A stretch of DNA of 64,000 bases from Fibrobacteria bacterium (GCA_037447435.1 JBBIGR010000026.1:1-64000); one strand, 5' to 3'; numbered from the stretch's first letter, positions 31,139 through 48,584 are shown. Numbers and translations: made by a program. Notes: generated from the sequence alone by a model not told the origin.

Positions 31139-31156
31139 GTGGAACAAAGGTTCCAC
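31139..31156. promoter_or_regulatory. Motif-C palindrome (putative operator), copy 1
   Basis: GTGGAAC-AAAG-GTTCCAC in the divergent gap between TIGR02147-3 and GH2; GGGAGA-N17-TATTTT (31208) downstream. Confidence 0.72.
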
Positions 31157-31282
31157 GAAAACAATCAGCGGCACGGTAATGGTAGGGAGAATAATTCGCA
31201 TGAGAATTATTTTGTTTGTGAATTTCGAGTCACTCGATAAAGGCAGTTTTTCACGAAACTAAGGCAAACTAAGGAAAAATTC

Positions 31283-33637
31283 ATGACAGGACCAAAGCAG
31301 CATTTTTTTTTATTCTTTGTGGCAGCAATCATTCCATTTTTGTTTTTTGGAACCGTGCAGGCACGTGAAAAGATTTCAATAGACAGCCTTACCTGGAAAT
31401 TCATAAAACAGGATATAGCTTCGGCGCAGTCTGCAACATTTAACGACGCGTCCTGGGCAAATGTAAAACTCCCGCACGATTTTAACGGGGGAATAGACGG
31501 CATTAATAACGATATGTTCAAGGGCCCGAGTCAGTACCGCGGCCCAACTTGGTACCGTACGAAATTCACCCTTGATGCCGCAAATAGCGCAAAAAAAGTA
31601 TTTATCGAATTTGAAGGCGCGTCACTCGTTGCAACGGTATGGGTTAACGGAGACAGCATCGGCCAACACCGGGGCGGGTATACTGCGTTTACCTATGATA
31701 TTACATCGTCGGTTAAATTCGGGCAGGATAATATCCTTGCCGTTAAAGTGAGCAATGCCAACGATCCGACAATTGCACCGTGGATGTTCGTACCGTTCGG
31801 CAACTATCCGACGAGTATAGATTACGGGGTATACGGCGGGATTTATCGCAATGTATCGTTGATACTTACGGATAAGGTTAAAATCGAGGCAACATTCCAA
31901 TCAACGCCGAACGTCTCGGCCGCATCATCTAATGTAAAGGTACGGTCCGAAATAAGGAATTACGACGGCACGCCCCAGACGGTTACCGTACGCACGCAGG
32001 TTCTTGACGCTTTAGGTACCGAGGTCACCGTCATCGAATCCACCCAGAGCGTTGCCGCGGGGCAAACGGTATCGTTTGTCCAGACGAGCCCCAGCATAAC
32101 GAGCCCGCATCTTTGGTCGCCATCGGACCCGTATCTTTACACGGTTCGGTCTATTGCAATTGTTAATACCATCGAGACCGATCGTGTGGAAAACAAACTC
32201 GGTTTCAGGTGGTATCAGCTTAAAAACAAAACTGCTTTCACGCTCAACGGCCAGAACCTTTTTCTGCGGGGAATCAACAGGCATCAGGACCGCGCCGGGT
32301 TCGGTTACGCGCTTACCAAGGAACAAAACGTGTACGATATTGCACTTATCAAGTCCGGAGGATTCAATTTCCTTCGCCACGCACACTATCCGGCCGATCC
32401 TTCAGTCATGAGGGCATGTGATTCCCTCGGCATCATGGTGTGGCTGGAAATACCCATGACCGTATGCATTTCTACAAACCCGGGATTTAAAGCAAACGTG
32501 CTTTCGCAGCTTACCGAAATGATACGGCAGAATTACAATCATCCGAGTGTGATCGTATGGGGAATGGGCAACGAATCGGACCAGGATGTGGGAAAAAATA
32601 ATGATCCGCTTACCGAGTCGTATTCAAACCAGGTTATAAGCGCGCTCAATGCCCAGGCACATCTTTTAGACAGCACGCGCGTTACAACCGGTTGCAACTG
32701 GCGCTATGCTTCGAATCAGGCGATCGTGGATGTGTATTCTCCGCAGGACTGGACCGGTTGGTACAGCGGTGTCTATACCTCCTACAATCCGTCGAGTCTC
32801 ATCGGTGAATATGGTGCCGATGCCGACATATCCACTCATAAAGAAACCGGCGTTTTGCTTGACTGGAGCCAGGAATATCAGTGCCGGTTGCTGGAATATA
32901 AAGTTTCGAAAGGCGAAAGTGTCGCTGCCGCGTATCCCGGCCACTGCGTTTGGATAAGCTTTGATTTCGCCTCACCACGGCAGGACCGTGTGATCGGTCC
33001 AAATTCAAATACGATCAATTATATGAATCAGAAAGGGCTCTTTACCCATGATAGAAAGCCCAAAGACGCCTTCTATTTTTACAAGAGTTTTCAAACAAGC
33101 GGAAAAACTGCGCCCATGGTTTATATCGTATCGCATACGTGGCTGAATCGCTGGACGGCAGCCGGCGCAAAAAACATTTGGGCGTACAGCAATTGCGACA
33201 GCGTAGAGCTGTTCAACGATTACGGGAAAACGTCTTTTGGCAAACGGGCACGCACCGGCGGCGAACTCGGCAATACAAGGTTTGAATGGAATGCCGCCAA
33301 TGTCAAGTATAATGTCCTGTATGCGATAGGATATGTCAATAGCCAGCCGGTGGCGCGGGACACAATTATTTTGAATAACCTGCCGGGGTTGCCCGTGGGA
33401 ACGATCGACCGTAAAAACCCCCTCATTCTCACCCCTGCCACGGTTTTTGAAAATGCGTCTCAGTGTCATGAGGTGACGGTTTATTCGGCAAGCGGAGCGG
33501 TTGTGCGCTTCAACGTCGAAAACAATACCATAAAGCAATTAGCCAGCCTGTCTCGCGGAGTGTACATTGTCAAATATGTCGGGCCCGATGGCATCGCCAG
33601 GCGCATGTCTTATGTTGTTTCCCGGCCGTTCCATTAA
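31283..33637 (+). CDS. GH2 beta-galactosidase-like enzyme with C-terminal T9SS-like domain
   Basis: LRGINRHQD, RHAHYP, NHPSVIVWGMGNE, GEYG; close paralog of 7438..9844. Confidence 0.9.
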   Translation: MTGPKQHFFLFFVAAIIPFLFFGTVQAREKISIDSLTWKFIKQDIASAQSATFNDASWANVKLPHDFNGGIDGINNDMFKGPSQYRGPTWYRTKFTLDAANSAKKVFIEFEGASLVATVWVNGDSIGQHRGGYTAFTYDITSSVKFGQDNILAVKVSNANDPTIAPWMFVPFGNYPTSIDYGVYGGIYRNVSLILTDKVKIEATFQSTPNVSAASSNVKVRSEIRNYDGTPQTVTVRTQVLDALGTEVTVIESTQSVAAGQTVSFVQTSPSITSPHLWSPSDPYLYTVRSIAIVNTIETDRVENKLGFRWYQLKNKTAFTLNGQNLFLRGINRHQDRAGFGYALTKEQNVYDIALIKSGGFNFLRHAHYPADPSVMRACDSLGIMVWLEIPMTVCISTNPGFKANVLSQLTEMIRQNYNHPSVIVWGMGNESDQDVGKNNDPLTESYSNQVISALNAQAHLLDSTRVTTGCNWRYASNQAIVDVYSPQDWTGWYSGVYTSYNPSSLIGEYGADADISTHKETGVLLDWSQEYQCRLLEYKVSKGESVAAAYPGHCVWISFDFASPRQDRVIGPNSNTINYMNQKGLFTHDRKPKDAFYFYKSFQTSGKTAPMVYIVSHTWLNRWTAAGAKNIWAYSNCDSVELFNDYGKTSFGKRARTGGELGNTRFEWNAANVKYNVLYAIGYVNSQPVARDTIILNNLPGLPVGTIDRKNPLILTPATVFENASQCHEVTVYSASGAVVRFNVENNTIKQLASLSRGVYIVKYVGPDGIARRMSYVVSRPFH

Positions 33638-33820
33638 TTAGCAAGCACAAAGAGTAATCAAAGTACTATTCTCTGCAAAAAATGTTGTCGAGCCGAACCC
33701 AGTCTATCATTGAAAATTTCTTGGAAATCAAAATTACACGTTTAAGTGTTGTCAAAAACTCGGAATTTTTTGGGGATTTAAAAGAAATTTCGGCTATATT
33801 ATCAGGCGGGGGTATAATTC

Positions 33821-34828
33821 ATGAAAAATCAATTTGCAAGTCTGTTTGTTGCCGCTTTTGCGGTATTAAGTTTGCATTGCGGCGTTTTTGCCGACGTAAT
33901 TCAGGTAAACGTGAGTTCCATTCTCAATACGCGGTCGATCACGACTTTGACTAACGGAAGTCTTGTCACCTGGATAAACGGCGTTGACGGAGGCGGCGCA
34001 TCCGACGGATACCTGACAATGGCAGCATCGCTTTTTAAAGGCGACAAAAACCCTCATGCGCTGCCCGACAGCGGGAAAATTGCCGCAGACACAAATCATC
34101 CTGAAGTCATGCTGAACTATTCCAACAGCGATGGAAAAAACAATCAAACGCATTTTGTCGTGGGTTCCGGAGAGTTCACGTTTTCGGTCCCGCAAACAAA
34201 TTATTCCAAGATGTTTCTTTTTTTTACCAGCTCCGAAGGAACATCTTCGATACAAGTGACATTAACCTATGCGGACGCTACGGAATCCAAAGCCTTTGTC
34301 GTACCGGATTATTACACCGATATTCCTTCGAACGATCAGAATTTCTGCTACCTTGTCAAAGACCTTGCAAAATGGAACAAACAGAATGTCATGACCGAAA
34401 CGAATCATCATAACATCGATGCGTTGAACGTTCATCCGAATGCCGCGAAGGTCCTTACGGCAATAAAAGTTCAAAAAAGTCAGGCAGGCTATATGGTGTT
34501 TTGGGGCGCAACCGGGGTTTCGACAAAATCAACTTATGTCGAACACGGCTTTTCAAACTGTGTGCCCGGAAATACGATAAAGGCCGTTCGTGCAATGCAA
34601 AGAACGGGCGTCGGAAACAATCGTATTGCTTTAGTCAATATTCCCGCCCAAACGGACGTTTCCGTTTTTTCGACACGCGGTCAAAATAGTTACAAGGCTT
34701 CTTTTGTGCAAGCAGGGACGATTTACCTGGAGGGAGTTAACGGGAAAAAACTTCCGCCGGGGACCTATGTATGCAGGTTGACATTGGGTGAAGAGATCAG
34801 ATATTTAAAGGTTTTCAAGGCCCAATAA
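33821..34828 (+). CDS. Secreted hypothetical protein with T9SS-like tail
   Basis: Signal peptide, beta-rich domain, VSVFSTRGQ...PPGTYVCRL tail. Confidence 0.6.
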   Translation: MKNQFASLFVAAFAVLSLHCGVFADVIQVNVSSILNTRSITTLTNGSLVTWINGVDGGGASDGYLTMAASLFKGDKNPHALPDSGKIAADTNHPEVMLNYSNSDGKNNQTHFVVGSGEFTFSVPQTNYSKMFLFFTSSEGTSSIQVTLTYADATESKAFVVPDYYTDIPSNDQNFCYLVKDLAKWNKQNVMTETNHHNIDALNVHPNAAKVLTAIKVQKSQAGYMVFWGATGVSTKSTYVEHGFSNCVPGNTIKAVRAMQRTGVGNNRIALVNIPAQTDVSVFSTRGQNSYKASFVQAGTIYLEGVNGKKLPPGTYVCRLTLGEEIRYLKVFKAQ

Positions 34829-35069
34829 CCCCCTCGGCCGCACAGTATCGCGTTTTGCGGCAAACCGTTCAAAATCGCTTTGGCCCGCCTTTGCATCACT
34901 ATATATAAATATATCGTAAAATTAATTCCTTTAATTTGTTTTCTGGCGTTTCCTTCCCTCAAACCTTACATTACCTCATGATGGGTCAGGGGATTTATTT
35001 CCCTCATAATTTGTAATATATCATTGATTTTCAAAAGTATTCACTATAGTATGGATTGAAGGAGAGTTT

Positions 35070-37439
35070 ATGCGCTCAAGTATTCTGGTTTTTGCCGAGT
35101 TATTTACCGTTTTATTCGCAACCGTCTCCTTTGCTGCGGAAGTATATGTTTCGCCAACGGGAAACGATGCGGCAAGCGGGGCTATCGGTTCGCCGCTTGC
35201 GACAATTGCCGCAGCGCGCGATAAAGCCGACCAGCTTAAAGCCGGAAACACTCCGGTGATGATTTACTTTAGGGAAGGAACCTATTATTTGACCGCACCG
35301 GTTGTGATTGGCCCCGCCAATTCGGGAACCGCGCAAGCGCCAATCGTTTATGCCGGATACCCCGGAGAAAATCCCGTTATCAGCGGAGGAATCAGGGTAC
35401 CGGATACGGTGTCGTGGACGGTTTCATCCGGGCAGATCATGGTAACTACCATTACACCCAATCTTAAAATCGACCAGCTTTTTCTTAACGGCAAACGAAT
35501 GATAATGGCGCGATATCCGAATTTTGATTCGACTAAGGTTATTTTGGACGGCTATGATGCGAATTGTTTCAGTACCGCAAGGGTCGCGACGTGGAAGAGC
35601 CCTGCCGAGGGACCTGGATATATCCGTGCCCTGCATCCGAATCAATGGGGGAGCGAGTCGTATACCATAACCGGCAAAAACAGCGACAATACGTTGACCA
35701 TGCAATGGGCCGGTGATAATAACAACGGCAATACCATGCATCCGACTTACCGCATGGTCGAAAATATCTTCGAAGAATTGGACGCCCCGAAAGAATGGTA
35801 TTATCGAAAAGCAACAGGGCAGCTTTATTTTTACCCGCCCGCGGGAACTAATCTGAAAACCGCAAAAATCGAACTTGCATCGCAGGACGAACTTATCAGG
35901 ATCGTTGGAACGGCAACAGCCAAAGCGTCGTACGTAACCTTTAAGAACCTGACATTTACCCATACGTATCGCACCTTGTTCAGCAAGACGTATGAGCCGA
36001 TTTTGAGAAGCGATTGGCATATTGCCCGGAGCGGTTGCGTGTACATGGAAAATACGGACCATATCCGCATCGAGAGCTGCTTGTTCGATCAAATCGGCGG
36101 CAACGGCATTTTTATGAGCGGCTATAACAAGTTTAATATCGTGTTCAATAACAATTTCGTCGACAACGGCGCTTCATGCGTCAATTTGATCGGTCTGCAA
36201 AGCGCCGTGCGCTGCGCGGCGAATTGGTCTCCGGCAATAAACTGTACCGACAAGACCCCTGGGCCGCTCACGCAGGATTATCCGGCATTTATCAGGGTCG
36301 AAAACAACATGATGAACCATCTGGGACGGTTCGAAAAACAAACGTCGGGCGTGAACCTGGGGATTACCGAATGCGATACGGTATTGCACAACACCATTCA
36401 CGATTGTCCTCGCGCAGCGGTCAATATAAACACCGGGCGTTTCGGCGGACATGAAATTGCCTATAACTGGATTTATAATTCCGTTTTGGAAACCGAGGAC
36501 CACGGTCCGTTCAATTCGTGGGGACGGGACCGCAATCTTGACTTTAAGGATGATACGGCCGCAACGCAGCTCGATGCTTGGAAAACAACGGTCATTCATA
36601 ATAACAGATGGGAAGTCCGGCAAGGACTTTTCGGCCTCGATCTCGACGATCAATCGTCGAATTACCTTATGTTCAACAATCTGCTTTTAGGGAGCGGTCT
36701 CAAAATGCAATGGAGCAGACATAATACCTAGTATAATAATATACTTGCCAATGGTGCCAATACAACGATAACCGGCGTGTGGTGGGGCTCCAACGATTAC
36801 ATGACGCGCAATATTTTTACCAGCGGTCAGACCTATTGGTGTAACTTTTTTTCCCCGATCAGCGACCCGAACCTTGTTGCCGACACCATTGCCAAACATG
36901 TCAGATTGATCGATTCAAATCTGGTCTCGTCGGGTGCGGGAAGCGTATCTACCGAAGCAGGCAGCGTTACCTGGACCCGATGGCATAGCGCAGGGCTGGA
37001 TATGCATTCGGCAGCAGGCGACCCGATGTTTGTCGATGTCAACCAGACCTGGCCGGGGTACGGCCCAAAAGGCAATTATCAGGTCAAACCCGGTTCGCCG
37101 GCCTTGAACATCGGTTTTAAAAATTTCGCAATGGATTCCTTCGGCGTCATGAGCGTTGCAACTGCAACCGTTCAGGCTCCTTTTCCCGGTCGCCTCATGG
37201 AGAATGGAGCGGCACATATGTCCGATAAGGTACGATACGCATCGGGCATGGTCATGATTTCTCTGGCCGGAAATTACCGGGTGACGGTAACGACGGCGCA
37301 AGGCAGAATAGTCGCCGCTTTTTCAGGAAAAGGCATTTCAAACTTTGCCGTTACTAAAAAAATGGCGGGAAGCGGACTGTATTTGTTAACTGTCAATAGT
37401 GCGCAAGGAATATTCACGAGGAAATTATTGATACATTGA
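35070..37439 (+). pseudogene. GH141-like right-handed beta-helix glycosidase with T9SS-like tail, interrupted by an in-frame TAG at 36729-36731
   Basis: YVSPTGND, REGTYYL, MARYPN, ENIFEELDAPKEWY, DHGPFNSWGRDR, LDLDDQSSNY. The frame continues after TAG (YNNILANG...) into ORF 36777..37439. Confidence 0.78.
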
Positions 37440-37464
37440 TATATGTTGTGGAAGGGGAATAATT

Positions 37465-39504
37465 ATGATCACGCATCGGATTTGCGGAATGAACCGGGGG
37501 CTTTTCATACTTTTGACCGCATGCGTCTTAGCAGGAGGGGCCATGGCGGCGCAAAATACCGTGGGCGCGACGACCCCGTTTACAATTATGGAAGGAGAGT
37601 CGGGAACGCTGGGCGGCGGGGCGACTGTTCGCAAGTTGCAAACCATACCCGCCAATGCCGTTTCGAGCCCGGAACTCGAGGCGTCGGGCAGGGCGTTTGT
37701 CCAGCTCACCGCAACCGGACAGTCGGTATCGTGGGTCAATCCGGTCGACAGCGACAACACGATCAATATCCGTGAGTGTATCCCCGACGCGCCCGCCGGC
37801 GGCGGCATCGACGCGACGCTCGATCTGTATGTCAACGGCGTTTTGCGCCAGGCCATACCCCTGACGTCGAGGCAAACCTGGGTTTACGAAGGTAACAACG
37901 GCAATAACAACGGCATGAGCCAGGATCCTTCAACCGGCGGTCCGCATGTGTTTTACGATGAATCGCGCACATTCATTACCGGCCAGGCGCTTAAGGTCGG
38001 CGATACCATCATGCTCAAGAAAGACGCGACAAACACCGCATCGTTTTACTATATCGACTGCATCGATCTCGAATCGACTTCGCCAAAAGCCCGACCCGCG
38101 AACTCGCTTTCCGTTGCGGATTACGGCGCGACCGGGACCGGAACCGCAAATGTCAACAACGCGTTCAATTCGTGTTGCAACGCCGCTAAATCGCAGGGCA
38201 AGATCGTTTGGATTCCTGCCGGTACATACTACATGACAAATTGGAGTCCCAATGGCGTTACCATAGCCGGCGCAGGAATGTGGTATACCACGTTATACTT
38301 TACAATGGGTCAGATTCAGTCGAATTCGTGCAGTTTTCAGGATCTTTGCGTCGACGCAGTGACTGTGCAACGCGACCAGGGTATGGGCGGTGTCAATACG
38401 AACGGTTCGAATTATGTGATCGACCGCGTTTGGGCCATTCACGGATGCTGGGCCGGGTTCTGGTGTTGCGGCACGAACGTCACGCTGCAAAACAGCCGTT
38501 CGTCGATTTGCTGGGGCGACGGTCTCAATATGAACAACGGCACCGGCGGCGGCGGGACAGGAACCAACCTTCTCGCACAGAATAACTTTACGCGCGGATG
38601 CGGCGACGACGGCGTCACCGTGTACTCTGTCTCGTACTCTCAGGAAGTAAACGGCGCCGTTTTACGAAACAACACGACGGTTGCGATGTGGTGGGCCAAC
38701 GGCCTGCGTATTGCCGGCGGCAAAAACGTTCGCGCCGAAAACAACCTGCTTCTCGACGATGTGAAAGAAGCGGGTTTATTTATCGGCATCTACGGCTCCG
38801 ACGGCAGCAACCTGGATTCATCCGTGATCACCGGCAACGTAATCGTTCGGGCGGGCAACTCCCGCAATCCTTCAGGCATATGCGTCAATGGTTCGCCGGG
38901 CGGAAAACTGGTCAATACGGTCATTTCCAACAACACCATCAAAGATGCGCAATTTTACGGCGTGCTTGTGGGGAGTGATCTTGAGACCATTACAATGAGG
39001 AACAACATAATCGACCATCCTGCGCAAACCGCTATCTGGATTCAGGGCAGCGCAAAAGGATCGGCAAACATAGACTCCTGTCAACTCATCAACCGTATCG
39101 CAAAACAACTCGCTTACAAAAATGATGCGGGTACCGCTTTTCCCGTAACTTTCGGAGCCCACAATTACGGGATTCCCGATACCTTACCCGCTACCGATAT
39201 CAATTTTACGCAGCAAAACCCGAAATCTCGGCAAAATCTGTCGATCTTTCAAACTCACAATCTCTTGAAAATCCGCTATGGCGGAAGTTTGGAACAGGGG
39301 AATGTCCTGGCCTCGATTTACAATTCCGCCGGCCGGCTGATGTGGAAAAGCGGAAAATTATCATCCTATCCGCTTCAAGGCGATTTTATTTGCGCAACAA
39401 GCAATTTCGGTAATGGGGTTTATATCCTGACCCTCACGGAAAGCGACGATCTTAACCATTACCCAAAAGCAATTTCCCGCACATTTATCGTATCGAACCG
39501 ATAG
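37465..39504 (+). CDS. GH87-like (alpha-1,3-glucanase/mycodextranase-type) beta-helix glycosidase with T9SS-like tail
   Basis: VGATTPF.IMEGE, EASGRAFVQL, IPDAPAGGGIDATLDLYVNG, HVFYDESR, WGDGLN, TRGCGDDG, WWANG. Confidence 0.75.
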   Translation: MITHRICGMNRGLFILLTACVLAGGAMAAQNTVGATTPFTIMEGESGTLGGGATVRKLQTIPANAVSSPELEASGRAFVQLTATGQSVSWVNPVDSDNTINIRECIPDAPAGGGIDATLDLYVNGVLRQAIPLTSRQTWVYEGNNGNNNGMSQDPSTGGPHVFYDESRTFITGQALKVGDTIMLKKDATNTASFYYIDCIDLESTSPKARPANSLSVADYGATGTGTANVNNAFNSCCNAAKSQGKIVWIPAGTYYMTNWSPNGVTIAGAGMWYTTLYFTMGQIQSNSCSFQDLCVDAVTVQRDQGMGGVNTNGSNYVIDRVWAIHGCWAGFWCCGTNVTLQNSRSSICWGDGLNMNNGTGGGGTGTNLLAQNNFTRGCGDDGVTVYSVSYSQEVNGAVLRNNTTVAMWWANGLRIAGGKNVRAENNLLLDDVKEAGLFIGIYGSDGSNLDSSVITGNVIVRAGNSRNPSGICVNGSPGGKLVNTVISNNTIKDAQFYGVLVGSDLETITMRNNIIDHPAQTAIWIQGSAKGSANIDSCQLINRIAKQLAYKNDAGTAFPVTFGAHNYGIPDTLPATDINFTQQNPKSRQNLSIFQTHNLLKIRYGGSLEQGNVLASIYNSAGRLMWKSGKLSSYPLQGDFICATSNFGNGVYILTLTESDDLNHYPKAISRTFIVSNR

Positions 39505-39518
39505 GGTTCGATTTCCGT

Positions 39519-39565
39519 CGACAGGTATCCTGTTGCATTGTTGCGACAATACCTGTCGTTTTTTT
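39519..39565 (+). terminator. Intrinsic terminator after the GH87-like gene
   Basis: CGACAGGTAT..TGTTGCA-ttgt-TGCGACA-ATACCTGTCG followed by T7. Confidence 0.75.
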
Positions 39566-39716
39566 GTCTGAAATTGTTGTCATTTCAATAGGGCGAACTG
39601 CATCTTTCGTCTAAGCGGTCGATCAAACCTCCTCGTATTTGCGGAACATCTGCGACGGCGTTTATTTTATTCAACTTCGTCATAATGGCGAAAATGCCAT
39701 TGTAAAGACCAATATC

Positions 39717-39745
39717 TTGACTAAATAGGTGTTTCTCAGTATAAT
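39717..39745 (+). promoter_or_regulatory. Near-consensus sigma70 promoter
   Basis: TTGACT-N17-TATAAT. Confidence 0.75.
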
Positions 39746-39751
39746 TAAGAA

Positions 39752-39890
39752 CGGAATGTCCACTTGGGTTGCAATGAAATGCGAGCGCGTTTTGCGATAT
39801 TATCGATACGAAATATGTCCAAAACTCAGGAAAGGTAAACAATAATACCGTGGAACCGCAATTCCACGGTATTATTGTTTACCATGTATT
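39752..39890 (+). ncRNA. Candidate structured leader RNA or sRNA
   Basis: Follows a strong promoter; three possible stems, then a perfect 22-bp hairpin (39834-39883). No known family recognised. Confidence 0.35.
39850..39867. promoter_or_regulatory. Motif-C copy 2 (one mismatch), inside a 22-bp inverted repeat
   Basis: GTGGAAC-CGCA-ATTCCAC; CTGAGA at 39896 and TATATT at 39918. Confidence 0.62.
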
Positions 39891-39959
39891 TTATCCTGAG
39901 AAAAAGAAATCGCGCTTTATATTATTATATTAAAACCATATAAAACCCTGGGGGGCTTT

Positions 39960-42350
39960 ATGCAAAAAAACACCACAGCCGTCATTTTCGGCATACTCGC
40001 CGTTTCGGCTTCCGCTGCATTTGGACAAATCGGTCAGATCACCAACTCCGGTCATGTGATTAATGCCCAAGGGCAAGCCCTTAAAAACGCGATGATAACC
40101 TATACCAATCCGGATAAACGACTAAATTATGCTTTTTCCGATGCAAATGGAAATTTCGGCGTCGCTACCGCCCTTCAAAAAAGTGAAATGACCGCAGGTG
40201 GCCCAAACGGCGTATTTCGCGATGTCACTGTTTCGGGTGCCAAACTTGGGTTTTCGCTTTCCGAACGCAAATTGGTGACAATCGATTTGTTCGACATGGT
40301 CGGAAAGCATGTTGCTTCGGCTTTGAATCGAAACCTTGAAAAAGGGAATTACGTTGTCGACGTCAAAGTGCCGGGAAACCGCGCATTCGGCGGCAACGTT
40401 TACTTTGTTAAAATCAAATCGGACAATGAAACCGTTGTCCGCAAGGTTGTCGGGCTTTCCGCTGCCGGCGGCAAATCGGTATCCGCAGGAAATCCGGGAA
40501 CAGTATCGCCGGCGATTTCCCTTGCCAAAGCCGCCGCAGTCACCGATACGCTGAGGGTGGGAAAAACCGGGTATAAGGCGGTGTACATACCCGTGAGCAC
40601 CGGAACCGAAAATGTCGGGAACGTGACCCTTGTCAAATACGACATCGAGGCGCGCATCGATTCCGTTATGAACAAATTGACTCTTGCCAACAAAGTCGTA
40701 TTGATGACCGAAGACAATCCGGACCCCGCAAATCCGTATAAATCCGGCACAGGTATTTACAACGCAGGAGTGGCCCCGGACGGGAACGGCTTTAACAATT
40801 GGAACAACGCCCGCATGGCAACGGGAATGAAAATTCCCTCGATATCGGGATACGATTGCGTGCACGGGTATATCGGCGGCGGTTCCGTCGAAGGAACCAT
40901 GTTTCCTCATAATCAAGCAATGGGATGCATTCAGGACACGCTGCTTATTCAGAAAGCCGGACGCGTGACGGCGCTCGAAAGCGCGAGCAGGGGAGTTTAT
41001 TGGGCCTTTGCGCCATGCGTCGCGGTTTGCCGAAACGAACATTGGGGAAGAATTTACGAAGGGCCGGGCGAAACTCCGGACAATTGCGCACGGGTCGGAC
41101 GCCATTTAATACTCGGAATGCAAGGAAGAGACTTGTCACTGAATACCTCGATCGTTGCGACCGCAAAGCATTTTGCCGGTGACGGCGGCACTCAGGGAGG
41201 AACGAACGCGGGGAATACGGTAGGGACCGATGCGGTTCTGAGAGCCATTCATTTGCCGCCCTATGTTGCCGCAATCGAAGCCGAGGTCGGATGCATTATG
41301 CCGTCGTTTTCGAGTTGGAACGGCATCGGCAGTCATGCCAATAAACCGCTTCTCACGGACTGGCTAAAAACGCAACAGGGTTTCGACGGCTTTACCATTG
41401 GTGATTGGCAAGCGCATACGTTTCAGGGCGGTTCCGACAGACAATCTTGTGTCAATGCCACCATCAATGCCGGACTCGATAATCCCATGGCACCGGGAAT
41501 CGGCGCGCAAACCGAAAGCGACATCACTGCAGGAAACGCCAGCGGCGCGATTTCTATCGATCGCATCAACGATGCCTGCAGAAGGATTTTACGCATAATT
41601 ATCAGGAAAGGGCTTTTGGAGAATTATCACGCCCTTGCCGGATACGATCAATATTTCCATTCCGATTTGCACAAGCAGGTCGCACGGCAATGCGTGGCAG
41701 CGTCCATGGTGGTTTTGAAAAACGATAACAATACGCTGCCGCTTAAAAAAGGGAATCAGAAAATAGCCGTCATCGGTATGTGGGGCAATGATGTCGGATT
41801 GCAATGCGGCGGTTGGACTCTTGGATGGCAAGGTGCCGAAGGTGCGCAAAAACCGGCCGGAACAACCCTGTTTCAATCGCTTCAGCAACAGGGTAACGGC
41901 AATACCGTCACCTATTCCGCCGACGGCAGCAATATTCCCGGCGACGCAAGCACTGTCGTCGTTTGCGTCGGAATCAATCCGGCTGCGGAATATACCAAGA
42001 CCGATTCGCAATTGCAGCTTACCGATTCTCAATACGGAAAAATCAGCGATCTCATGGGTAAAGCATCTGCGTCGGGCAAACCGGTTGTCCTTGTATTGTT
42101 TGTCGATGGGCCGGTTGTCGTGACGCAATATATAAATCAGGCGAAGGCGGTCGTCTGCGCGTGGCTCGGCAGTCCGGAAGGAGCGGGATACGGCGATATT
42201 CTGTACGGCGACGTGCATCCCAGCGGCAAATTGAACCATACCTGGCCGTCGACGCTGTCCCAGATTCCGATCAACGACGGCAACATGGGAGATGCGACCG
42301 GTTCAGGCGGAACCCCTCTTTTCCCATTGGGATTCGGTCTGACCTATTAA
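39960..42350 (+). CDS. GH3 beta-glucosidase with an N-terminal carboxypeptidase-like domain interrupted by a T9SS-CTD-like insert
   Basis: GYDCVHG, FPHN, WGRIYEG, KHFAGDGG, IGDW nucleophile, C-terminal LFPLGFGLTY. Confidence 0.9.
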   Translation: MQKNTTAVIFGILAVSASAAFGQIGQITNSGHVINAQGQALKNAMITYTNPDKRLNYAFSDANGNFGVATALQKSEMTAGGPNGVFRDVTVSGAKLGFSLSERKLVTIDLFDMVGKHVASALNRNLEKGNYVVDVKVPGNRAFGGNVYFVKIKSDNETVVRKVVGLSAAGGKSVSAGNPGTVSPAISLAKAAAVTDTLRVGKTGYKAVYIPVSTGTENVGNVTLVKYDIEARIDSVMNKLTLANKVVLMTEDNPDPANPYKSGTGIYNAGVAPDGNGFNNWNNARMATGMKIPSISGYDCVHGYIGGGSVEGTMFPHNQAMGCIQDTLLIQKAGRVTALESASRGVYWAFAPCVAVCRNEHWGRIYEGPGETPDNCARVGRHLILGMQGRDLSLNTSIVATAKHFAGDGGTQGGTNAGNTVGTDAVLRAIHLPPYVAAIEAEVGCIMPSFSSWNGIGSHANKPLLTDWLKTQQGFDGFTIGDWQAHTFQGGSDRQSCVNATINAGLDNPMAPGIGAQTESDITAGNASGAISIDRINDACRRILRIIIRKGLLENYHALAGYDQYFHSDLHKQVARQCVAASMVVLKNDNNTLPLKKGNQKIAVIGMWGNDVGLQCGGWTLGWQGAEGAQKPAGTTLFQSLQQQGNGNTVTYSADGSNIPGDASTVVVCVGINPAAEYTKTDSQLQLTDSQYGKISDLMGKASASGKPVVLVLFVDGPVVVTQYINQAKAVVCAWLGSPEGAGYGDILYGDVHPSGKLNHTWPSTLSQIPINDGNMGDATGSGGTPLFPLGFGLTY

Positions 42351-42356
42351 TGCATT

Positions 42357-42374
42357 GTGGAACAAACGTTCCAC
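42357..42374. promoter_or_regulatory. Motif-C copy 3
   Basis: GTGGAAC-AAAC-GTTCCAC; ATGAGA (42403)-N17-TATATT (42426) with an extended TG. Confidence 0.72.
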
Positions 42375-42495
42375 GGAAAGCGAATCGGTACGGCCATTGG
42401 TTATGAGAAAACAGGCAATCGATGTTATATTATTTGGTATCGTCAAGTTGTGTGAGGCGGTATCGGTTGAATTCAAGGATTAAAGGAGTCTTACG

Positions 42496-44868
42496 ATGAA
42501 AAAATCTTTAAAGTTGATTTTAGCGGTCGTCGCGGTATCGTCGGTTGCTTTTGGGCAAAGCGGCGATTTTACGGTGTCGGGAATTGTCAAAACCGGCGGC
42601 CAGCCTCTTGAAGGTGCTACCGCATCGTACACGAGTCTTGGAAAGCGGTTGTCTTGGGACATTTCCGGCTCTACCGGAGCTTTTGGACCGACAACCGGCA
42701 TCATCGGCGCCCCCAAATCGCCCGGATCCATCGGGATGATCGCTCATGGTCCCCTTGCAATCGAAGTATTCGACGTTTTGGGAAATAAAGTGACTTCATT
42801 TTCGACGGTTCTTGATAAAGGAAAATACTCCGTCGAAGCGGTTTCTTCCAAATTGCCCAAATCCGTATACCTGATGAAAATTACCGGCAATGGAACGGTG
42901 TCGTACCAAACCTACATCAACACCGGAAAAGCCGGGGTCGGTTCGTTGGCGACTAATGGGGCGAGCGCAAACGGTGTATTGCTGGCGAAAAAACTTGCGG
43001 TGGTCGATACTGTTCGCATCGGTAAAACAGGGTATACTCCGGTCAAGGTCGCGATCCAATCCTATACCGATGATATCGGGACCGTTACCCTGACGAAAAT
43101 TGATATCGAATCCGAAGTGTCCGCATTGCTTGCCAAAATGTCCAATGCCGAGATCGCAGGCCAACTGATACAGATCGATTGTCCGTCGAGCGGCGACATC
43201 ACCGGGAAATTTCTCGGAACCGTGTTCGGCGGCGGCACCGACGGTCCGAGCAGCGGATCGCCTACCGGATCGGGAACAGCCGCACAATGGGCGGCGTTCA
43301 ACGACAATTTCAGAAACATCGGTTCCGGCCTAAAGAGCCCCATACTAACGGAATGGGACGTTATTCACGGCTATGGAAAATGCAAAGGTGCCACGGTTTA
43401 TCCTCATAACATCGGGCTCGGATGTACGTGGGACACTACCGTTGTCCAGAAATGCTATCGAGTTGCCGGTATCGAAAGCAGGGGTTGCGGTATCCTTCTG
43501 GGGTATGGCCCGTGCATCGCGGTTCCGCAGGATTACAGATGGGGAAGAGTTTACGAAGGATTTTCAGGTTCCCCGGTCCTGACCCAGGCAATGGCAAGGG
43601 CAGCAGTGCTCGGTTCGCAAACAACCGACCTTTCCAATCCTCTCGCCTATGCCGCATGCGTAAAGCATTTTGCCGGTGACGGCGGGTCGACGCAAGGCCT
43701 GAACCCCGGAGCCACTACCGGCGACGAGGCGACGCTGGAGTCCATTCATTTGCCCGGATACGCTGCCGCAATTAAAGCCGGCGCCGCATCCGTTATGTCT
43801 TCCTATTCAACCTGGAACGGAACCAATTGCACTCAAAATAAAGCATTACTCACCGACTGGTTGAAAACAAGTCAAGGGTTCGACGGATATGTAAATTCAG
43901 ACTGGAGCGCCACCTATCAATTCGGCAACGACACGAAACTTGCTTTTCAAGCAGGACTCGATGTGCCGATGCTCGGCGCGAATTCGGATGCCGGTCAGAA
44001 CGGCAAACCTTCGGTCGGATCCGTTGCCACCGATATGTTGAACAGCGGCGGAACCGATGCCGCCCGTATCAAAGATGCTGCGGCACGCGTAATACGATTA
44101 AAATATAAAATGGACCTTTTTCATCAGCCGCTTTCCACCAATTCGGCCGTGACCGCTCTTGTTGGAAGTCAAGCTCATCGCGATATTGCCCGCGAAGCGG
44201 TGCGCAAATCCCTTGTTCTGCTCAAAACGACCACGGGATTATTACCGCTTTCAAAAACCGCAAAAATCACTCTTGTCGGCCCGCACGCGCAGGACATCGG
44301 AATGCAATGCGGCGGTTGGACTCTCGGATGGCAAGGGTTAACGGGAAATTCAATGCCCGGAACTACTATCAGGCAAGGATTTGAGAGCATCGGCGGCACC
44401 GGCAACATTTCCTACAGCGCCGACGGTAACGGCATTACCGGAGACGTAGCGGTTGTTTGCATCGGAGAACAGCCCTATGCCGAAACCGCCGGAGACATTG
44501 TCGATGGAACCGTGCCGCACACCATGTCGATTCCCGAAGCCAACCTGGTGACTCAGGCAAAAGCGTCCGGCAAACCGGTCGTTTGCGTGATGATTACCGG
44601 ACGTCCGATGGATATCTCGGCAATTATGACTGCAGATGCCATCGTGGCTGCCTGGTTGCCCGGCACCGAAGGAGGCGGCATTGCGGAAGTATTGTATGGA
44701 AACTACAAGTTTACCGGTAAGCTTGGAATGGCTTGGCCGGCAAACGCAAATTCGGAACCAACTAAAAACGGCGTAGGAACAACACCCCGATACGCCTATG
44801 GTTTTGGTCTTAAAGCCGACGGCACGCAGCTTCCTGCCGGTTTGTACGGCTCCGGGGTAAATCCATAA
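42496..44868 (+). CDS. GH3 beta-glucosidase, tandem paralog
   Basis: WDVIHG, YPHNIGLG, WGRVYEG, KHFAGDGG, NSDW, AWLPGTEGGG, YAYGFGL. Confidence 0.9.
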   Translation: MKKSLKLILAVVAVSSVAFGQSGDFTVSGIVKTGGQPLEGATASYTSLGKRLSWDISGSTGAFGPTTGIIGAPKSPGSIGMIAHGPLAIEVFDVLGNKVTSFSTVLDKGKYSVEAVSSKLPKSVYLMKITGNGTVSYQTYINTGKAGVGSLATNGASANGVLLAKKLAVVDTVRIGKTGYTPVKVAIQSYTDDIGTVTLTKIDIESEVSALLAKMSNAEIAGQLIQIDCPSSGDITGKFLGTVFGGGTDGPSSGSPTGSGTAAQWAAFNDNFRNIGSGLKSPILTEWDVIHGYGKCKGATVYPHNIGLGCTWDTTVVQKCYRVAGIESRGCGILLGYGPCIAVPQDYRWGRVYEGFSGSPVLTQAMARAAVLGSQTTDLSNPLAYAACVKHFAGDGGSTQGLNPGATTGDEATLESIHLPGYAAAIKAGAASVMSSYSTWNGTNCTQNKALLTDWLKTSQGFDGYVNSDWSATYQFGNDTKLAFQAGLDVPMLGANSDAGQNGKPSVGSVATDMLNSGGTDAARIKDAAARVIRLKYKMDLFHQPLSTNSAVTALVGSQAHRDIAREAVRKSLVLLKTTTGLLPLSKTAKITLVGPHAQDIGMQCGGWTLGWQGLTGNSMPGTTIRQGFESIGGTGNISYSADGNGITGDVAVVCIGEQPYAETAGDIVDGTVPHTMSIPEANLVTQAKASGKPVVCVMITGRPMDISAIMTADAIVAAWLPGTEGGGIAEVLYGNYKFTGKLGMAWPANANSEPTKNGVGTTPRYAYGFGLKADGTQLPAGLYGSGVNP

Positions 44869-44894
44869 TATAAGACGACTACAATTTTGGTTTA

Positions 44895-44917
44895 AGGGGC
44901 GTTGCGCAAACGCCCCT
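44895..44917 (+). terminator. GC-rich hairpin after the second GH3 gene
   Basis: AGGGGCGTT-gcgca-AACGCCCCT. Confidence 0.5.
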
Positions 44918-45246
44918 GTCTTCCGTACGCCCTGTATGGCAAGTCCTGTTTTTTGCGACCAGCGGCAATTTCCTGCCGCTTATGGTAAATATTAAAGCAT
45001 TGCCTCTGGGAGCTTTTGTTGTTATAATTGAAGATGAGATTACAAAAAACAAGGCTCAACGTATTTGGGTTAATCATTAATAATAAGTAATTAAATATCT
45101 ATACAAATCATTGTGTTGTAAGTAATAGCTTATATGTATGGCGTAATTAGGAAAAAATAGGATATTCTTTTTGAAAATTTTGGATTATATTGGTGCTTAT
45201 TGTTGAATTTGAAGCAAAAAAAATCTGAGTTTTATTAAAAAAGGGG

Positions 45247-45831
45247 ATGAAATCCATGGGAGGGAAAAAAGTCTGCTCTGGTTTTGCTTTCGTGTGCTTG
45301 TTCTTGAGCGTGTTTTTTTATGCCTGCGGACCATCCACCACAGCCGGAAATACCCCAACGGTTACGCTTTCTGATTTGGCGATTACCACGCAAATCGCGG
45401 GGTGGGCACCGTTGGATACTACTGCATATTTTGTGGACAGCACGATGATCAATTTTGTCAATGGCGGAAACGTTTCGTATTGCGGCGCGTGCAATGGAAA
45501 CAGCGTTCTGAAGGCGGGTATTTGCACGAAACTGGCGACAGGGCAAAACAATAAGGCGAAAATATTCGTCATGGACTATGGGACTTCGGCAAACGCGATT
45601 ACCGAATTTAATGCAAGGGTAAATTCGCAGTTAAAAAGTTCAGTCGTTCCAATCGGTTCTTTTTCGCAAACCGTTGCCGTCGGTTCCACCGTCGGCGGCG
45701 GGCTGTATACTTTTTGCTGTATGAAGAATTTCTACATAGAATCGCAATTGAGCAATTACGATTCGACCGCCGTTGCCCAGCGCGATGCAAATGTTTTTCT
45801 CACGTATTATCAATCGAAAATTAAGCCGTAA
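45247..45831 (+). CDS. Lipoprotein, DUF6599-like
   Basis: Lipobox FFYAC; GW...MINFVNGG..SY and IFVMDYGT..NA motifs; directly upstream of a DUF362 gene. Confidence 0.5.
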   Translation: MKSMGGKKVCSGFAFVCLFLSVFFYACGPSTTAGNTPTVTLSDLAITTQIAGWAPLDTTAYFVDSTMINFVNGGNVSYCGACNGNSVLKAGICTKLATGQNNKAKIFVMDYGTSANAITEFNARVNSQLKSSVVPIGSFSQTVAVGSTVGGGLYTFCCMKNFYIESQLSNYDSTAVAQRDANVFLTYYQSKIKP

Positions 45832-45872
45832 CAGGTACTATATCGCATTGCTATTAAAGGGGGGAATTTGCC

Positions 45873-47348
45873 ATGGCGGAAAAAATGTCCGGAAGCAGGA
45901 GAAATTTTTTAAAAGCATCGGCTTTAGGTGCGGCATCGCTGGCGGTATTGGGACCGCAGGCAAAAAAGGCCGCAGCCGCGACCATTAGTGCCAAAACCAT
46001 CCCGCTTAATACTACGCCGATCAACCAGGATATCGAAAATCTTCGCGTCGCCTATATCACCGATCAGGCGATGCTGCGCAGCAGCAATTATCCCGGTTTC
46101 GATTCGTTCAACAATGCAACCAATACGACCACCGGCGTCGTTTATTCTGTTGTAAAGGACAATATCGATAAACTCGCTTGCGCGCTTGCCAATAAGACGA
46201 GCATCGCGGACGCTTGGGCGACCATTTTCAAAATTCCCTCGACAAAAACCTGGGCAACCGCAAAAGCCGCAATCAAGGTGAATGCTTTTGCAAACGATCA
46301 TCCCTGCGTGCCGATTGTCGCCAAAATATGCGAAGTGCTTATCGGTAAAGGAATCGTTTCGTCGAATATTACGATATTCGACATGAATCCGAACCCGTCG
46401 GAAATCTACAGTAGCTATACCGGTGCGGGCAAACAAATCCCGGCCGGTGTCGTGTACAGCGGAGCCGGCGGCACGACGCTGCAGTTTCCCGCGGCATCCG
46501 GGGGCTACTCGTTTCCCGCATCCTCATGCCTAGACGGCGCCGACATATTTGTAAACATAGCGGTCAATAAGGGACACGACCGTATTCATTCGTATAGCGG
46601 CGTCACCATGTGCCAAAAAAACATGAAGGGCGCCGTGGATTTCGGGCATCAGGGAGAGGAACCGGCCGGAGACCCAGTGGGCGGACCGGCAAAATTGGTT
46701 GCGGTGAATTCCTGCGACTATGTCGTCGGTAATATTCCGGCCGCCTATCCCGCTAAAATGCAATTATGCATTGTCGATTCGTTATGGGGCGGCAGGGAAG
46801 GCGACTGGTCGGGCGCCATCGATAACGGCAACGATTTATACTCGATAGCCATGGGTACGTTTCCCGGAGCGGTCGATTATGTTTCGACAATGAAAATACG
46901 GGCGAAAAAATTCGGCAATTGGTATCAACCCATAGTAGACAAATTTATTACCGGTTACGGATATTCGGCAGCCGATATCACCACGCTTATGGCCGCCGCA
47001 AGCGGCGCCGGAAAAGGCCTTGTCGACGCATCAAAAACCGCAGTGGGACCGGCGCAAATCGAAAATTCAAATTTAATGAAGCACGGTATGATCAGAGTGG
47101 CCCTGTGCACCGGCGGCATCGGGTCCGTTGCGGACCTCTATATTGCAAAAGGAGAAACCCCCGTCGCGGCCGAAATCCATGATGTTTCCGGCAGGCTGGT
47201 GAGGACTCTTGCAACGCAAGTCGGTGCGATGCAGATCGTATGGGATGGAAAAAACGATGCGGGCTCGAGGGTTCGCAGCGGTAGTTACATCGTGACTGTT
47301 TTTGGCCAAAAGACCAGGGCCTCCGCGGAGATCCTTGTCGGAAGGTAA
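45873..47348 (+). CDS. Tat-exported DUF362-like protein with C-terminal FlgD-Ig/T9SS-like domain
   Basis: SRRNFLK twin-arginine signal; AIKVN, ADIFVNIAVNKGH...GVTMCQKNMKG, LCIVDSL; IHDVSGRLVRTL...WDGKNDAG...GSY. Confidence 0.72.
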   Translation: MAEKMSGSRRNFLKASALGAASLAVLGPQAKKAAAATISAKTIPLNTTPINQDIENLRVAYITDQAMLRSSNYPGFDSFNNATNTTTGVVYSVVKDNIDKLACALANKTSIADAWATIFKIPSTKTWATAKAAIKVNAFANDHPCVPIVAKICEVLIGKGIVSSNITIFDMNPNPSEIYSSYTGAGKQIPAGVVYSGAGGTTLQFPAASGGYSFPASSCLDGADIFVNIAVNKGHDRIHSYSGVTMCQKNMKGAVDFGHQGEEPAGDPVGGPAKLVAVNSCDYVVGNIPAAYPAKMQLCIVDSLWGGREGDWSGAIDNGNDLYSIAMGTFPGAVDYVSTMKIRAKKFGNWYQPIVDKFITGYGYSAADITTLMAAASGAGKGLVDASKTAVGPAQIENSNLMKHGMIRVALCTGGIGSVADLYIAKGETPVAAEIHDVSGRLVRTLATQVGAMQIVWDGKNDAGSRVRSGSYIVTVFGQKTRASAEILVGR

Positions 47349-47375
47349 TAAAACGAACGGGACGGGTGGCCGATA

Positions 47376-48419
47376 ATGCCGATCAGGATCAATGTAGTTA
47401 TGGGCGGGCCGTCGGCCGAGCACGACATTTCATTGCTTTCGGCAATGGACGTGCTGACGCATCTCGACCGTAAACGATATGGTGTTCGCGCCGTTGTCGT
47501 TACCATGGACCTGGAATTTTATTATTGCGACATCGATGATGTAGTCCCGCAAACGGAAGAATTTTTATCACCCGACAAATACAAATCATTTTCCGGACCG
47601 TTTAAGCCCTATTCGTCTGCACCGGTTTGGGAAAATTGCGATGTCGCTTTCCTTGCCATACATGGGGCATTTGGCGAAGACGGTCTGTTACAGGGATTCT
47701 TGGATTCAAATCTGATACCGTATACCGGTTCCGGCGTTTACTCAAGCGCTACCGGAATGAACAAAATCGCTTCGAAAATCCTATTTGAACAAAACGGGAT
47801 CAAAACCCCTCCGTATTATATTACAGGAAATACTCACCCTGAAATCACCTGGCAATTTCTTGCCGAAAGATTCGATTATCCCATGTTTGTCAAGTGCCCC
47901 CATTCCGGATCCTCCCGGCTTATGACCCGTGTGGATTGCGGGGCGGGATTGGGAACAAAAATCACGGAATACGTGCAGTATTCGCCGGACGTACTGGTGG
48001 AAAAAGGAATCAAAGGCAGTGAATTCGCGGTTTCGGTTTTGGAAATGCCGGATGGTACCGTCGCTGTTCTTCCTCCTGTAAAGATCAATCTTGTAAAGAC
48101 CAATTATTTCAGCCATTCGGCGAAGTTCGGAAGCAATGGCGCTGAAAAAATCGTGCCGTGTTCCATTGACGCGGTATTGTCTGAAAAAATCAACGCTTTG
48201 GCTCTCAAATGTCACCGGATTCTCGGATGCCGGGGAGCTTCTACATCGGACATCATCGTCGATACGGACAATGTCCCCTATGTCCTAGAAATCAATACGT
48301 TGCCCAAAATGACCGTGGATTCCTTGCTCCCCTTATCCTTTAAAGCAACGGGCGGAACTTATGAAGAACTGCTGGATATACTGATTTCGGTTGCATGCAA
48401 AAACCCTGTTTCACCATAG
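47376..48419 (+). CDS. ddl: D-alanine--D-alanine ligase-like ATP-grasp enzyme with divergent active site
   Basis: MGGPSAEHDISLLSA, IHGAFGEDG, PYTGSG, MNK, FVK..SGSS, EINTLP. Confidence 0.8.
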   Translation: MPIRINVVMGGPSAEHDISLLSAMDVLTHLDRKRYGVRAVVVTMDLEFYYCDIDDVVPQTEEFLSPDKYKSFSGPFKPYSSAPVWENCDVAFLAIHGAFGEDGLLQGFLDSNLIPYTGSGVYSSATGMNKIASKILFEQNGIKTPPYYITGNTHPEITWQFLAERFDYPMFVKCPHSGSSRLMTRVDCGAGLGTKITEYVQYSPDVLVEKGIKGSEFAVSVLEMPDGTVAVLPPVKINLVKTNYFSHSAKFGSNGAEKIVPCSIDAVLSEKINALALKCHRILGCRGASTSDIIVDTDNVPYVLEINTLPKMTVDSLLPLSFKATGGTYEELLDILISVACKNPVSP

Positions 48420-48439
48420 GGAATGGACGGAATTAGACT

Positions 48440-48457
48440 GTGGAACATGGGTTCCAC
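48440..48457. promoter_or_regulatory. Motif-C copy 4
   Basis: GTGGAAC-ATGG-GTTCCAC; CTGAAA (48485)-N17-TATGTT (48508). Confidence 0.72.
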
Positions 48458-48584
48458 GGAATCCTGAGACCGAAGCGTTTAATCCTGAAAAATTAGCTTT
48501 TCTGCCGTATGTTTATTGTTGTGGGGAATATACTGATATAGTATATGAAATAATTGCTTAAGCGCTTTAAATAAGGGGGTTGTA

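Follow-up and report, generated by a model that had tools for sequence, protein, structure and literature searches.

A palindromic operator candidate and its putative TIGR02147/DUF4423 activator at secreted glycoside hydrolase genes of a Fibrobacteria bacterium

The palindrome and its copies

The stretch of DNA analysed here, below called the window, comprises 64,000 nucleotides (nt) of a Fibrobacteria bacterium (GCA_037447435.1 JBBIGR010000026.1:1-64000) whose whole genome of 5.05 Mb is labelled G000. In the following, G### denotes genomes, L### loci and C## contigs of G000, and C34:33725 gives contig and position. Four genes for secreted glycoside hydrolases (GH) in the window are each preceded by a copy of the 18-base palindrome GTGGAAC-N4-GTTCCAC, termed motif C (Table 1). 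The first copy lies in the gap between the GH2 gene and a divergently transcribed gene of the TIGR02147 (Fsuc_second)/Pfam DUF4423 (PF14394) family, designated paralog 3, which is followed by a gene for a predicted lipoprotein. The window holds three genes of this family, and the genome gives 28 family matches, about 27 paralogs. In a domain scan of 35 window open reading frames (ORFs), picked from 114 listed, Pfam returned the names GH2, GH3, GH3 and GH5 that a first-pass annotation had given to the genes downstream of the four copies.

The same annotation had placed perfect copies at 31139, 42357 and 48440 and a copy with one mismatch at 39850, each followed directly by a G, and all of this was confirmed. 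When up to three mismatches are allowed, the window contains seven matches, compared with a mean of 2.12 in shuffled sequences, and none of 100 shuffles reaches seven. The genome-wide scan that the annotation had proposed was run and revealed two extra sites, C19:70062 and C22:34835, which in the minus-strand reading have GG after the palindrome, show the same distance to a -10 hexamer and have secreted-protein genes downstream. Thus, six good copies exist in the genome, four of them within the window. With a spacer of 4 nt, the 5.05-Mb genome contains five perfect and two one-mismatch matches; spacers of 0-3 and 5-12 nt pooled give no perfect and five one-mismatch matches. A matrix derived from the six sites scores them at 29.5-32.5, and the next-best match in the genome reaches 18.9. 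The one-mismatch match C74:6188 lies inside an ORF, has a low matrix score and is not counted among the six.

All six copies are intergenic, in a genome whose non-coding share is about 8.4% according to the ORF caller of this analysis, and two of them (31139 and C22:34835) are located in divergent gaps. Each copy precedes a gene for a secreted protein, and five of these proteins are glycoside hydrolases: C19:70062 is found upstream of a GH16 gene, C22:34835 upstream of a gene for a 755-aa secreted protein with a CarboxypepD_reg-like start. The flanking sequences are not common between the copies. The exact motif was not found in the 60 relatives searched, five of the same genus among them, because the arms vary and the paralog is patchily present. 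The palindrome appears to be a real operator and is likely the docking site of the adjacent paralog 3.

The core of motif C resembles GAAC-N4-GTTC, the SOS box of Gram-positive bacteria, and there is a resemblance to parS as well. Readings of the site as a LexA box, as a site of the CRP family or as a pair of inverted parS halves are the least credible of the alternatives considered and are largely refuted by target genes and distribution. Two LexA genes are present, and 21 perfect TGTGA-N6-TCACA boxes show that G000 has a CRP-like regulon. However, motif C occurs at neither lexA promoter and precedes no DNA-repair gene, the CRP boxes differ in sequence and spacing, no parS-like match was found, and the absence of the exact motif from the 60 relatives argues against a global regulator. 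One of the 21 CRP-type boxes is located in the window at 63937. In both lexA promoters (L054 1410-1460 and L055 1430-1480), TGTG(T/C)AT...TACAC-like elements recur, which may be the SOS box of this lineage.

Promoter geometry and mode of action

The TAT(A/T/G)TT hexamers reported at 31208, 39918, 42426 and 48508 are present, separated from the palindrome by 50-51 nt. The GA(G/A)AA element described upstream of them was found at the four window copies, but it is not kept at the two copies outside the window and is therefore considered simply a poor -35 element, not a part of the motif. At C19:70062, TATATT follows after 50 nt, and at C22:34835, TATTAT follows after 51 nt. These two copies constitute a held-out test for which the hexamer list was widened after the sites had been viewed; the chance background for a -10-like hexamer at offsets 50-52 is 0.031 per position. 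In addition, copy 1 lies 52 nt from a minus-strand TATACT that faces paralog 3, and it is likely, as judged from this arrangement, that copy 1 serves both directions. The window promoters are weak: Two of the four score 9/12, the other two are below the scan threshold, and the -35 elements are poor. A sigma54 reading was dropped upon inspection by eye, as no -24/-12 pair is common to the copies.

The centre of the dyad is located 59-61 nt before the -10 hexamer, the corresponding distance in other family members being 48-51 nt. At all six sites, about 28 nt separate the end of the single dyad from the -35 element downstream, and the core promoter is never overlapped. If the hexamer starts at -12, the operators would lie at about -72 and -62 relative to predicted start sites, which would match class I CRP sites: In E. 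coli, class I activation by CRP employs sites at -61.5 and -71.5 (PMC4132738). As there, a dyad lies upstream of a weak promoter, with two positions spaced by a helical turn. In contrast to CRP, a single global factor, protein family and site are different here, and dozens of paralogs would have small regulons.

We assign a probability of about 80% to the reading that motif C is the operator of paralog 3 and that this protein acts as a self-activating class I activator. A paralog 3 dimer would dock on the palindrome through its XRE-type helix-turn-helix (HTH) and recruit RNA polymerase from about -72 to the weak sigma70-type promoters, possibly by contacting the alpha C-terminal domain of RNA polymerase, a contact to which the position of the site points. 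As an outcome, the secreted glycoside hydrolases as well as paralog 3 itself would be turned on, the latter by positive feedback. From sequence comparisons, we infer direct binding, activation instead of repression, the start sites and the positive feedback. Transcription would start near 31220, 39930, 42438 and 48520 on the plus strand and near 31074 on the minus strand. The first-pass annotation had also read the palindrome as an activator site, and this is supported since it foretold the -10 geometry of the two copies outside the window and fits seven variant sites in G007 (see below). Missed were the minus-strand -10 of copy 1, by which the site faces the promoter of paralog 3, the inverted repeat around copy 2, the regulon outside the window and the same design at many paralogs.

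Many XRE- and ArsR-type proteins are repressors. Paralog 3 might bind the palindrome and yet repress, form loops or block read-through, which we regard as quite improbable. Copies 3 and 4 lie just past upstream stop codons, as annotated before, at distances of 6 nt and 20 nt, and copy 2 is located downstream of the near-consensus promoter 39717-39745, so that a bound protein could stop elongation. On the other hand, the site leaves about 28 nt free before the -35 element and stays off the core promoter, two positions one helical turn apart are kept, and the -35 elements are poor. Furthermore, in published data for Fibrobacter succinogenes, the expression of family genes increases on cellulose along with that of carbohydrate-active enzymes.

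The palindromes could also be RNA hairpins, i.e. terminators or stabilisers, or a dispersed repeat. This alternative, already raised by the first-pass annotation, is disfavoured and very unlikely for the sites as a set; it has some force only at copy 2, which forms a 20-pair stem with a terminator-like flag. Copies 3 and 4 come after stop codons, and the four regions fold as RNA with energies between -11 and -26 kcal/mol. By contrast, 31139 and C22:34835 are located in divergent gaps with no 3' end nearby, the terminator-like flag is confined to one of the four window copies, and all seven G007 sites have a stem-breaking mismatch. The copies share no flanks, and a fixed distance to the -10 hexamer is unexpected for a hairpin. 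The promoter at 39717-39745 is a sigma70 promoter with a score of 11/12, and the 48-bp inverted repeat around copy 2 follows about 90 nt downstream of it. Judging from their arrangement, promoter and repeat may furnish the GH3 gene with an attenuated leader or give rise to a short RNA.

Table 1. Features of the operator candidates, their predicted targets and the paralog 3 locus (window positions unless a genome is named)
Feature	Position	Strand
TIGR02147/DUF4423 paralog 3, 278 aa from Met at 30991 (mechanical TTG ORF start 31093)	30155..30991	-
Predicted recognition helix, residues 41-48; Ser42 covaries with half-site base 3	30848..30871	-
Predicted lipoprotein, 430 aa, Cys21, weak CarboxypepD_reg match; 4-nt overlap with paralog 3	28866..30158	-
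Conserved lipoprotein tether motif, residues 29-36, nearly limited to TIGR02147 partners	30051..30074	-
Paralog 3 promoter, predicted -10 TATACT at 52 nt from copy 1; kept in L022, L023, L011 and L028	31081..31086	-
Operator copy 1, perfect, divergent gap, in phase with GH2 (+) and paralog 3 (-) promoters	31139..31156	.
GH2 promoter, predicted -10 at 51 nt after copy 1	31208..31213	+
GH2 glycoside hydrolase, predicted target	31283..33637	+
Near-perfect inverted repeat, 48 bp, around copy 2	39835..39882	.
Operator copy 2, one mismatch	39850..39867	.
Predicted weak promoter CTGAGA-16 nt-TATATT, first GH3	39896..39923	+
GH3 glycoside hydrolase (first), predicted target	39960..42350	+
Operator copy 3, perfect, 6 nt past the stop of the first GH3	42357..42374	.
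Predicted weak promoter ATGAGA-17 nt-TATATT with TG extension, second GH3	42403..42431	+
GH3 glycoside hydrolase (second), predicted target	42496..44868	+
Operator copy 4, perfect, 20 nt past the stop of the D-Ala-D-Ala ligase gene	48440..48457	.
Predicted -10 TATGTT, weakest, GH5 promoter	48508..48513	+
GH5 glycoside hydrolase, predicted target	48585..49790	+
Short TIGR02147 ORFs	G003:C7:43540, G003:C27:59284, G002:C3:191398, G002:C33:51857, G005:C49:54049	

Paralog 3 and the operators of its family

The proximity of paralog 3 to copy 1 is weak evidence because the genome has 28 family matches. Its candidacy, put forward in the first-pass annotation, is supported by palindromes before its homologs, a predicted XRE-type HTH and the covariation of helix and site. 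The homolog survey covered 40 loci, one of them the window itself, with an upstream span of 330 nt in which GTGGA-N7..9-TCCAC was searched for with at most one mismatch. Of the 27 loci whose helix starts with D/N-A-S/G (42-92% identity), 22 have a variant palindrome upstream, as against none of the 12 other loci (34-44% identity), a grouping that was drawn after the output had been viewed. The five misses are L028, which has a GTTG/CAAC version, L033, L035, L036 and L037. In the closest homologs, palindrome and -10 hexamer are kept, and the DNA between them as well as the flanks has diverged. L023 has a second copy, located before a GH3 gene. The homologs carry the names Chitinivibrionales and Chitinispirillaceae, which points to Fibrobacterota as the phylum of this organism; a search for related loci in genome contigs yielded no confirmed relative.

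Where a genome encodes a close homolog of paralog 3, the pattern GTKGAAC-N4-GTTCMAC is found in 13 of 19 cases, against 5 of 61 other genomes, a comparison confounded by the GTTG/GTTG sites of genus g26, which probably belong to another paralog, by intra-ORF matches in G047 and G049 and by the non-independence of kin. A search of 81 genomes with two mismatches matched 73 of them and was too noisy for use. G007, whose paralog 3 homolog is 63% identical, has seven variant sites, each composed of one GTGG and one GTTG arm and each with a -10-like hexamer 50-54 nt off; one of the seven was placed inside an ORF by the ORF caller used here. They precede two GH26 genes, a GH5 gene, a GH43-like gene, two DUF5060 genes and an MFS transporter gene. 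These targets differ from those in G000 and therefore, the regulon differs between species. The sites in G057 and G079 do not have the -10 geometry of those in G007.

Paralog 3 is a clear member of its family, with 275 bits for TIGR02147 (cut-off 50) and 103 bits for PF14394 (cut-off 30). An AlphaFold model based on an alignment of 82 sequences has a predicted local distance difference test (pLDDT) score of 88 and a predicted template modelling score (pTM) of 0.63. It comprises five N-terminal helices (10-24, 30-37, 41-48, 56-65 and 70-84, pLDDT >90), the second and third of which make up the HTH, followed by a winged HTH, two long helices and a C-terminal alpha/beta part. Residues 6-92 match XRE/HigA-type HTH domains (3pxp, Z 8.7, root-mean-square deviation 3.2 over 82 residues; 2eby, 8.7; 3trb, 8.6), residues 102-191 an ArsR-like winged HTH (2oqg, Z 8.8) and residues 109-267 Kfla_6221 (4g6q, Z 8.2). 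Foldseek with the model found no match at E<=0.001, a PDB sequence search with an alignment nothing significant (best E 0.37), and a protein atlas search returned DUF4423 clusters alone. An XRE-type HTH is predicted for paralog 3 by the model, and the dyad symmetry of the site suggests that the protein may bind the palindrome as a dimer.

The same design recurs in the family. Of 121 genomes of the phylum, 113 give TIGR02147 matches, and a single genome may encode 40 members or more. In G000, a strict in-phase palindrome is found at 7 of 27 paralog promoters vs. 96 of 1209 other genes; off-phase controls give 0/27 and 3/27. A family set of 141 promoters (158 before collapse at 85% identity) was assembled from G000, G002, G003, G005, G007, G075 and the paralog 3 homologs. 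A GT..AC palindrome, called without reference to any -10 hexamer, is present in 71 of these 141 promoters vs. 228 of 1208 other genes, with a shuffle mean of 23; this filter is blind to paralogs with non-GT arms or half-sites. The distances from centre to hexamer fall at 48-51 or 58-61 nt in 36 of 55 cases, i.e. in two windows 10 nt apart. Proteins less than 40% identical to paralog 3 account for 114 promoters, 49 of them with a palindrome, and here 21 of 34 distances are found in the eight in-phase positions out of 61. It is likely that each paralog has its own operator and regulon, and sister proteins in plant-fibre-degrading bacteria appear, by the same sequence criteria, to work alike, each with its own palindrome.

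Across 36 promoters, half-sites tend to be the more similar the more the proteins resemble each other at nine positions around helix 3 (Mantel r 0.67, or 0.57 as a partial correlation that allows for C-terminal identity). Ser42 is the top mutual-information residue for half-site base 3: In a set of 20 GTxG-type sites, all 14 that go with Ser42 have a GTGG arm, and none of the 6 that go with another residue does.

Several points weigh against paralog 3 as the activator acting at motif C. The phase windows and the -10 pattern were picked after the first sites were known. Copy 2 is part of a long hairpin downstream of a near-consensus promoter. L033, L035, L036 and L037 have the same helix and yet no upstream palindrome; in two of these four genomes, the variant sites are without an in-phase -10 hexamer, and an exact variant site is missing from the remaining two. 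Z values of 8-9 are only middling for small helical domains, and the Pfam HTH matches are weak (HTH_36 in 23 of 82 members, HTH_19 in 9 and HTH_3 in 6). Half of the family set, 70 of 141 promoters, lacks a GT..AC palindrome, and in G126, from a distant family within the phylum, only 6 of 30 promoters pass the filter, which is background level; two in-phase sites there (L208 and L219) agree with the helix pattern found elsewhere. The Mantel and Fisher tests overstate significance, as they were applied across related genomes. The Ser42 rule corresponds to three changes on the tree and two well-supported independent pairs (sign test p 0.5); with so few changes, it is statistically inseparable from shared descent. 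Finally, conserved GTGGAACCA half-sites precede the gene of a further paralog, C34:33725.

The operator might thus be real and the acting protein be C34:33725, a heterodimer of paralogs or an unrelated regulator; this is the foremost of the alternatives, though an unlikely one. GTGGAACC is found upstream of five of the six closest C34-type loci, typically 60 nt before TATATT, the palindrome-rich genomes G000 and G007 have both paralog types, and the C22 copy includes a complete GTGGAACCA. The distribution of C34:33725, however, fits that of the palindrome less well than does the distribution of paralog 3, although cross-talk between the paralogs is possible. G022, G051 and G064, which encode a close C34-type protein and no close paralog 3 homolog, have 0, 0 and 1 palindromes, the latter intra-ORF, whereas G044, G068 and G050 have the palindrome before the paralog 3 homolog and only distant C34-like proteins with a TGTTACC half-site. 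Moreover, most motif C arms do not retain the CA found after the half-site, and both arms of the palindrome change together with the helix of paralog 3. The C34-type clade (L236-L261) has a single half-site, not a dyad, and an S-H-N-F helix pairs with GTGGAACCA, whereas an S-P-N-Y helix pairs with TGTTACC. The start of TGTTACC is, in several genomes, only about 17 nt before the -10 hexamer, a placement that suggests a second activation geometry.

Other palindromes of the family were encountered as well. In the window, the region of paralog 2 (21442-21458 and 21544-24050) contains a perfect, genome-unique GGGCACA-N3-TGTGCCC 51 nt before TATATT together with an upstream half-site, and the coupled lipoprotein bears DUF2341 and Laminin_G_3 domains. 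A second regulon is marked by TGTTTTC-N5-GAAAACA, which is intergenic in 13 of 19 matches (G000:C5:127890 and 12 further sites), mostly before secreted-protein genes; eight sites have a -10 hexamer at 39-41 nt, and the site before its own paralog sits in a palindrome with 17-bp arms. A third, CGTATCC-N5-GGATACG-like motif has 14 intergenic sites among 40 matches at two mismatches (C52:3558, C4:42578, C3:195568, C46:12008 and others), mostly 49-51 nt before a -10 hexamer; one variant precedes the C52 paralog. The remaining paralog palindromes have only one or two genomic sites each. Short ORFs of about 100-240 aa match only the N-terminal ~110 positions of TIGR02147 and are stand-alone HTH proteins or broken copies.

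Coupled lipoprotein, related systems and expression

Paralog 3 and the predicted lipoprotein are, judging from their 4-nt overlap, translationally coupled. A downstream ORF is present at 148 of 158 family loci; 143 of these 148 are lipoprotein-like under a loose filter, and 68 have the 4-nt overlap. Length and other domains of the partners vary widely. Common to them is the motif G-[GST]-G-[TS]-[ED]-T-x-N shortly after the Cys, with clade-specific variants, which is referred to as the tether. A tether matrix built without G000 scores at least 8 bits in 15 of 21 G000 partners and in 1 of 477 other lipoprotein-like ORFs, and the tether motif is therefore partner-specific. One may speculate that the lipoprotein controls the state of the activator in response to a glycan and uses the tether for this purpose. 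A complex prediction with two copies of paralog 3 and the first 30 residues of the mature lipoprotein scored 0.30 (mark 0.32), with only the lipoprotein fragment scored and no controls, so that it is evidence neither way.

In a broader proposal, which we consider possible and rather doubtful, TIGR02147 proteins and their lipoproteins would be so far undescribed trans-envelope signalling pairs and the main control of polysaccharide degradation in Fibrobacterota: The lipoprotein would sense the glycan, the tether would signal, the activator would read its private palindrome by a helix-to-base code, and regulons would be rewired between species, with beta-glucan-type targets here and mannan-type targets in G007. 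Polysaccharides are sensed by pairs such as extracytoplasmic function (ECF) sigma/anti-sigma factors and SigI/RsgI, and Rgg/SHP and PrgX/cCF10 are peptide-controlled regulators. By analogy, a cytoplasmic regulator would here, too, have a dedicated envelope partner, exist in many paralogous pairs and control secreted enzymes. In contrast to those pairs, the regulator is an HTH protein at sigma70-type promoters, and the partner is a predicted lipoprotein without an obvious cytoplasmic domain.

Two families of XRE-type regulators come close to paralog 3. MmyB/MltR (3pxp), as described in PMC3406030, has a five-helix N-terminal XRE-type domain and a larger C-terminal module, occurs in many paralogs per genome and is a pathway-specific activator, as proposed for paralog 3. 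Unlike paralog 3, it has no coupled lipoprotein, and it targets antibiotic clusters. Its C-terminus is a PAS-like ligand-binding domain, whereas the paralog 3 model lacks such a six-stranded sheet; this rules out, as far as the model is correct, that paralog 3 belongs to the MmyB family. The match to 3pxp is limited to residues 7-92, the remainder being the ArsR-like winged HTH and the Kfla_6221-like part. Restriction-modification (R-M) controller (C) proteins such as C.AhdI are, according to PMC2275141, XRE-type dimers that activate their own operon via an upstream palindrome in a positive feedback. They use two adjacent operators at the promoter, probably contact region 4 of sigma70 and control an endonuclease (PMC2275141). 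Here, by contrast, a single site lies well upstream, the co-transcribed gene encodes a lipoprotein and the site is common to distant genes. Membership in the R-M controller family is ruled out: The partners are lipoprotein-like in 143 of 148 cases, no R-M family was found among the 35 window ORFs, and the dyad is single.

Published expression data can be connected with the family. In PMC12323243, 360 genes of F. succinogenes S85 are up on cellulose vs. cellobiose, and 13 of them are TIGR02147 genes, with log fold changes (logFC) of 1.7-5.5 (supplement 4). TIGR02147 genes are also up in three co-culture contrasts (16, 7 and 15 genes), and the four 'up' sheets of supplement 4 account for all 74 mentions of TIGR02147, the four 'down' sheets for none. 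A separate contrast, with yeast added, has one family gene among those that fall (supplement 7). By analogy, the induction on cellulose fits substrate-induced, self-amplifying regulators; F. succinogenes belongs to another lineage, in which the GT..AC palindrome filter may not hold. Section 19 of PMC12323243 states that clustered enzyme genes 'may belong to regulons', names no regulator for them and leaves the TIGR02147 genes without comment. A term search of PMC4704652 gave no relevant passage. The literature searched, with subscription journals mostly outside it and supplements barely covered, contains no description of TIGR02147/DUF4423 proteins as regulators: TIGR02147 gave 0 hits, DUF4423 one table entry, and no function is described. 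New are the six-site regulon with a held-out prediction, the two-position phasing and a candidate helix-to-base rule. The same holds for the tether motif specific to the partners, the rewiring of regulons from species to species and the connection of published induction data with the family.

Fibrobacterota include major cellulose and chitin degraders. For a family still annotated as hypothetical, there are now predicted operators and regulons, a rule for operator position and a candidate residue for site recognition, which makes the switch-on of enzymes in Fibrobacterota directly testable. Dozens of paralogs with matched sites form a natural series for studying the evolution of DNA-binding specificity and regulons, and they are a possible source of orthogonal activator-operator pairs.

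Two minor observations concern the window itself. It contains two paralogous GH2 genes, 7802-9844 and 31283-33637, and the palindrome is found only at the second. A gene at 56163-59054 encodes a 963-aa fusion of MFS, spermidine-synthase-like and TPR parts.

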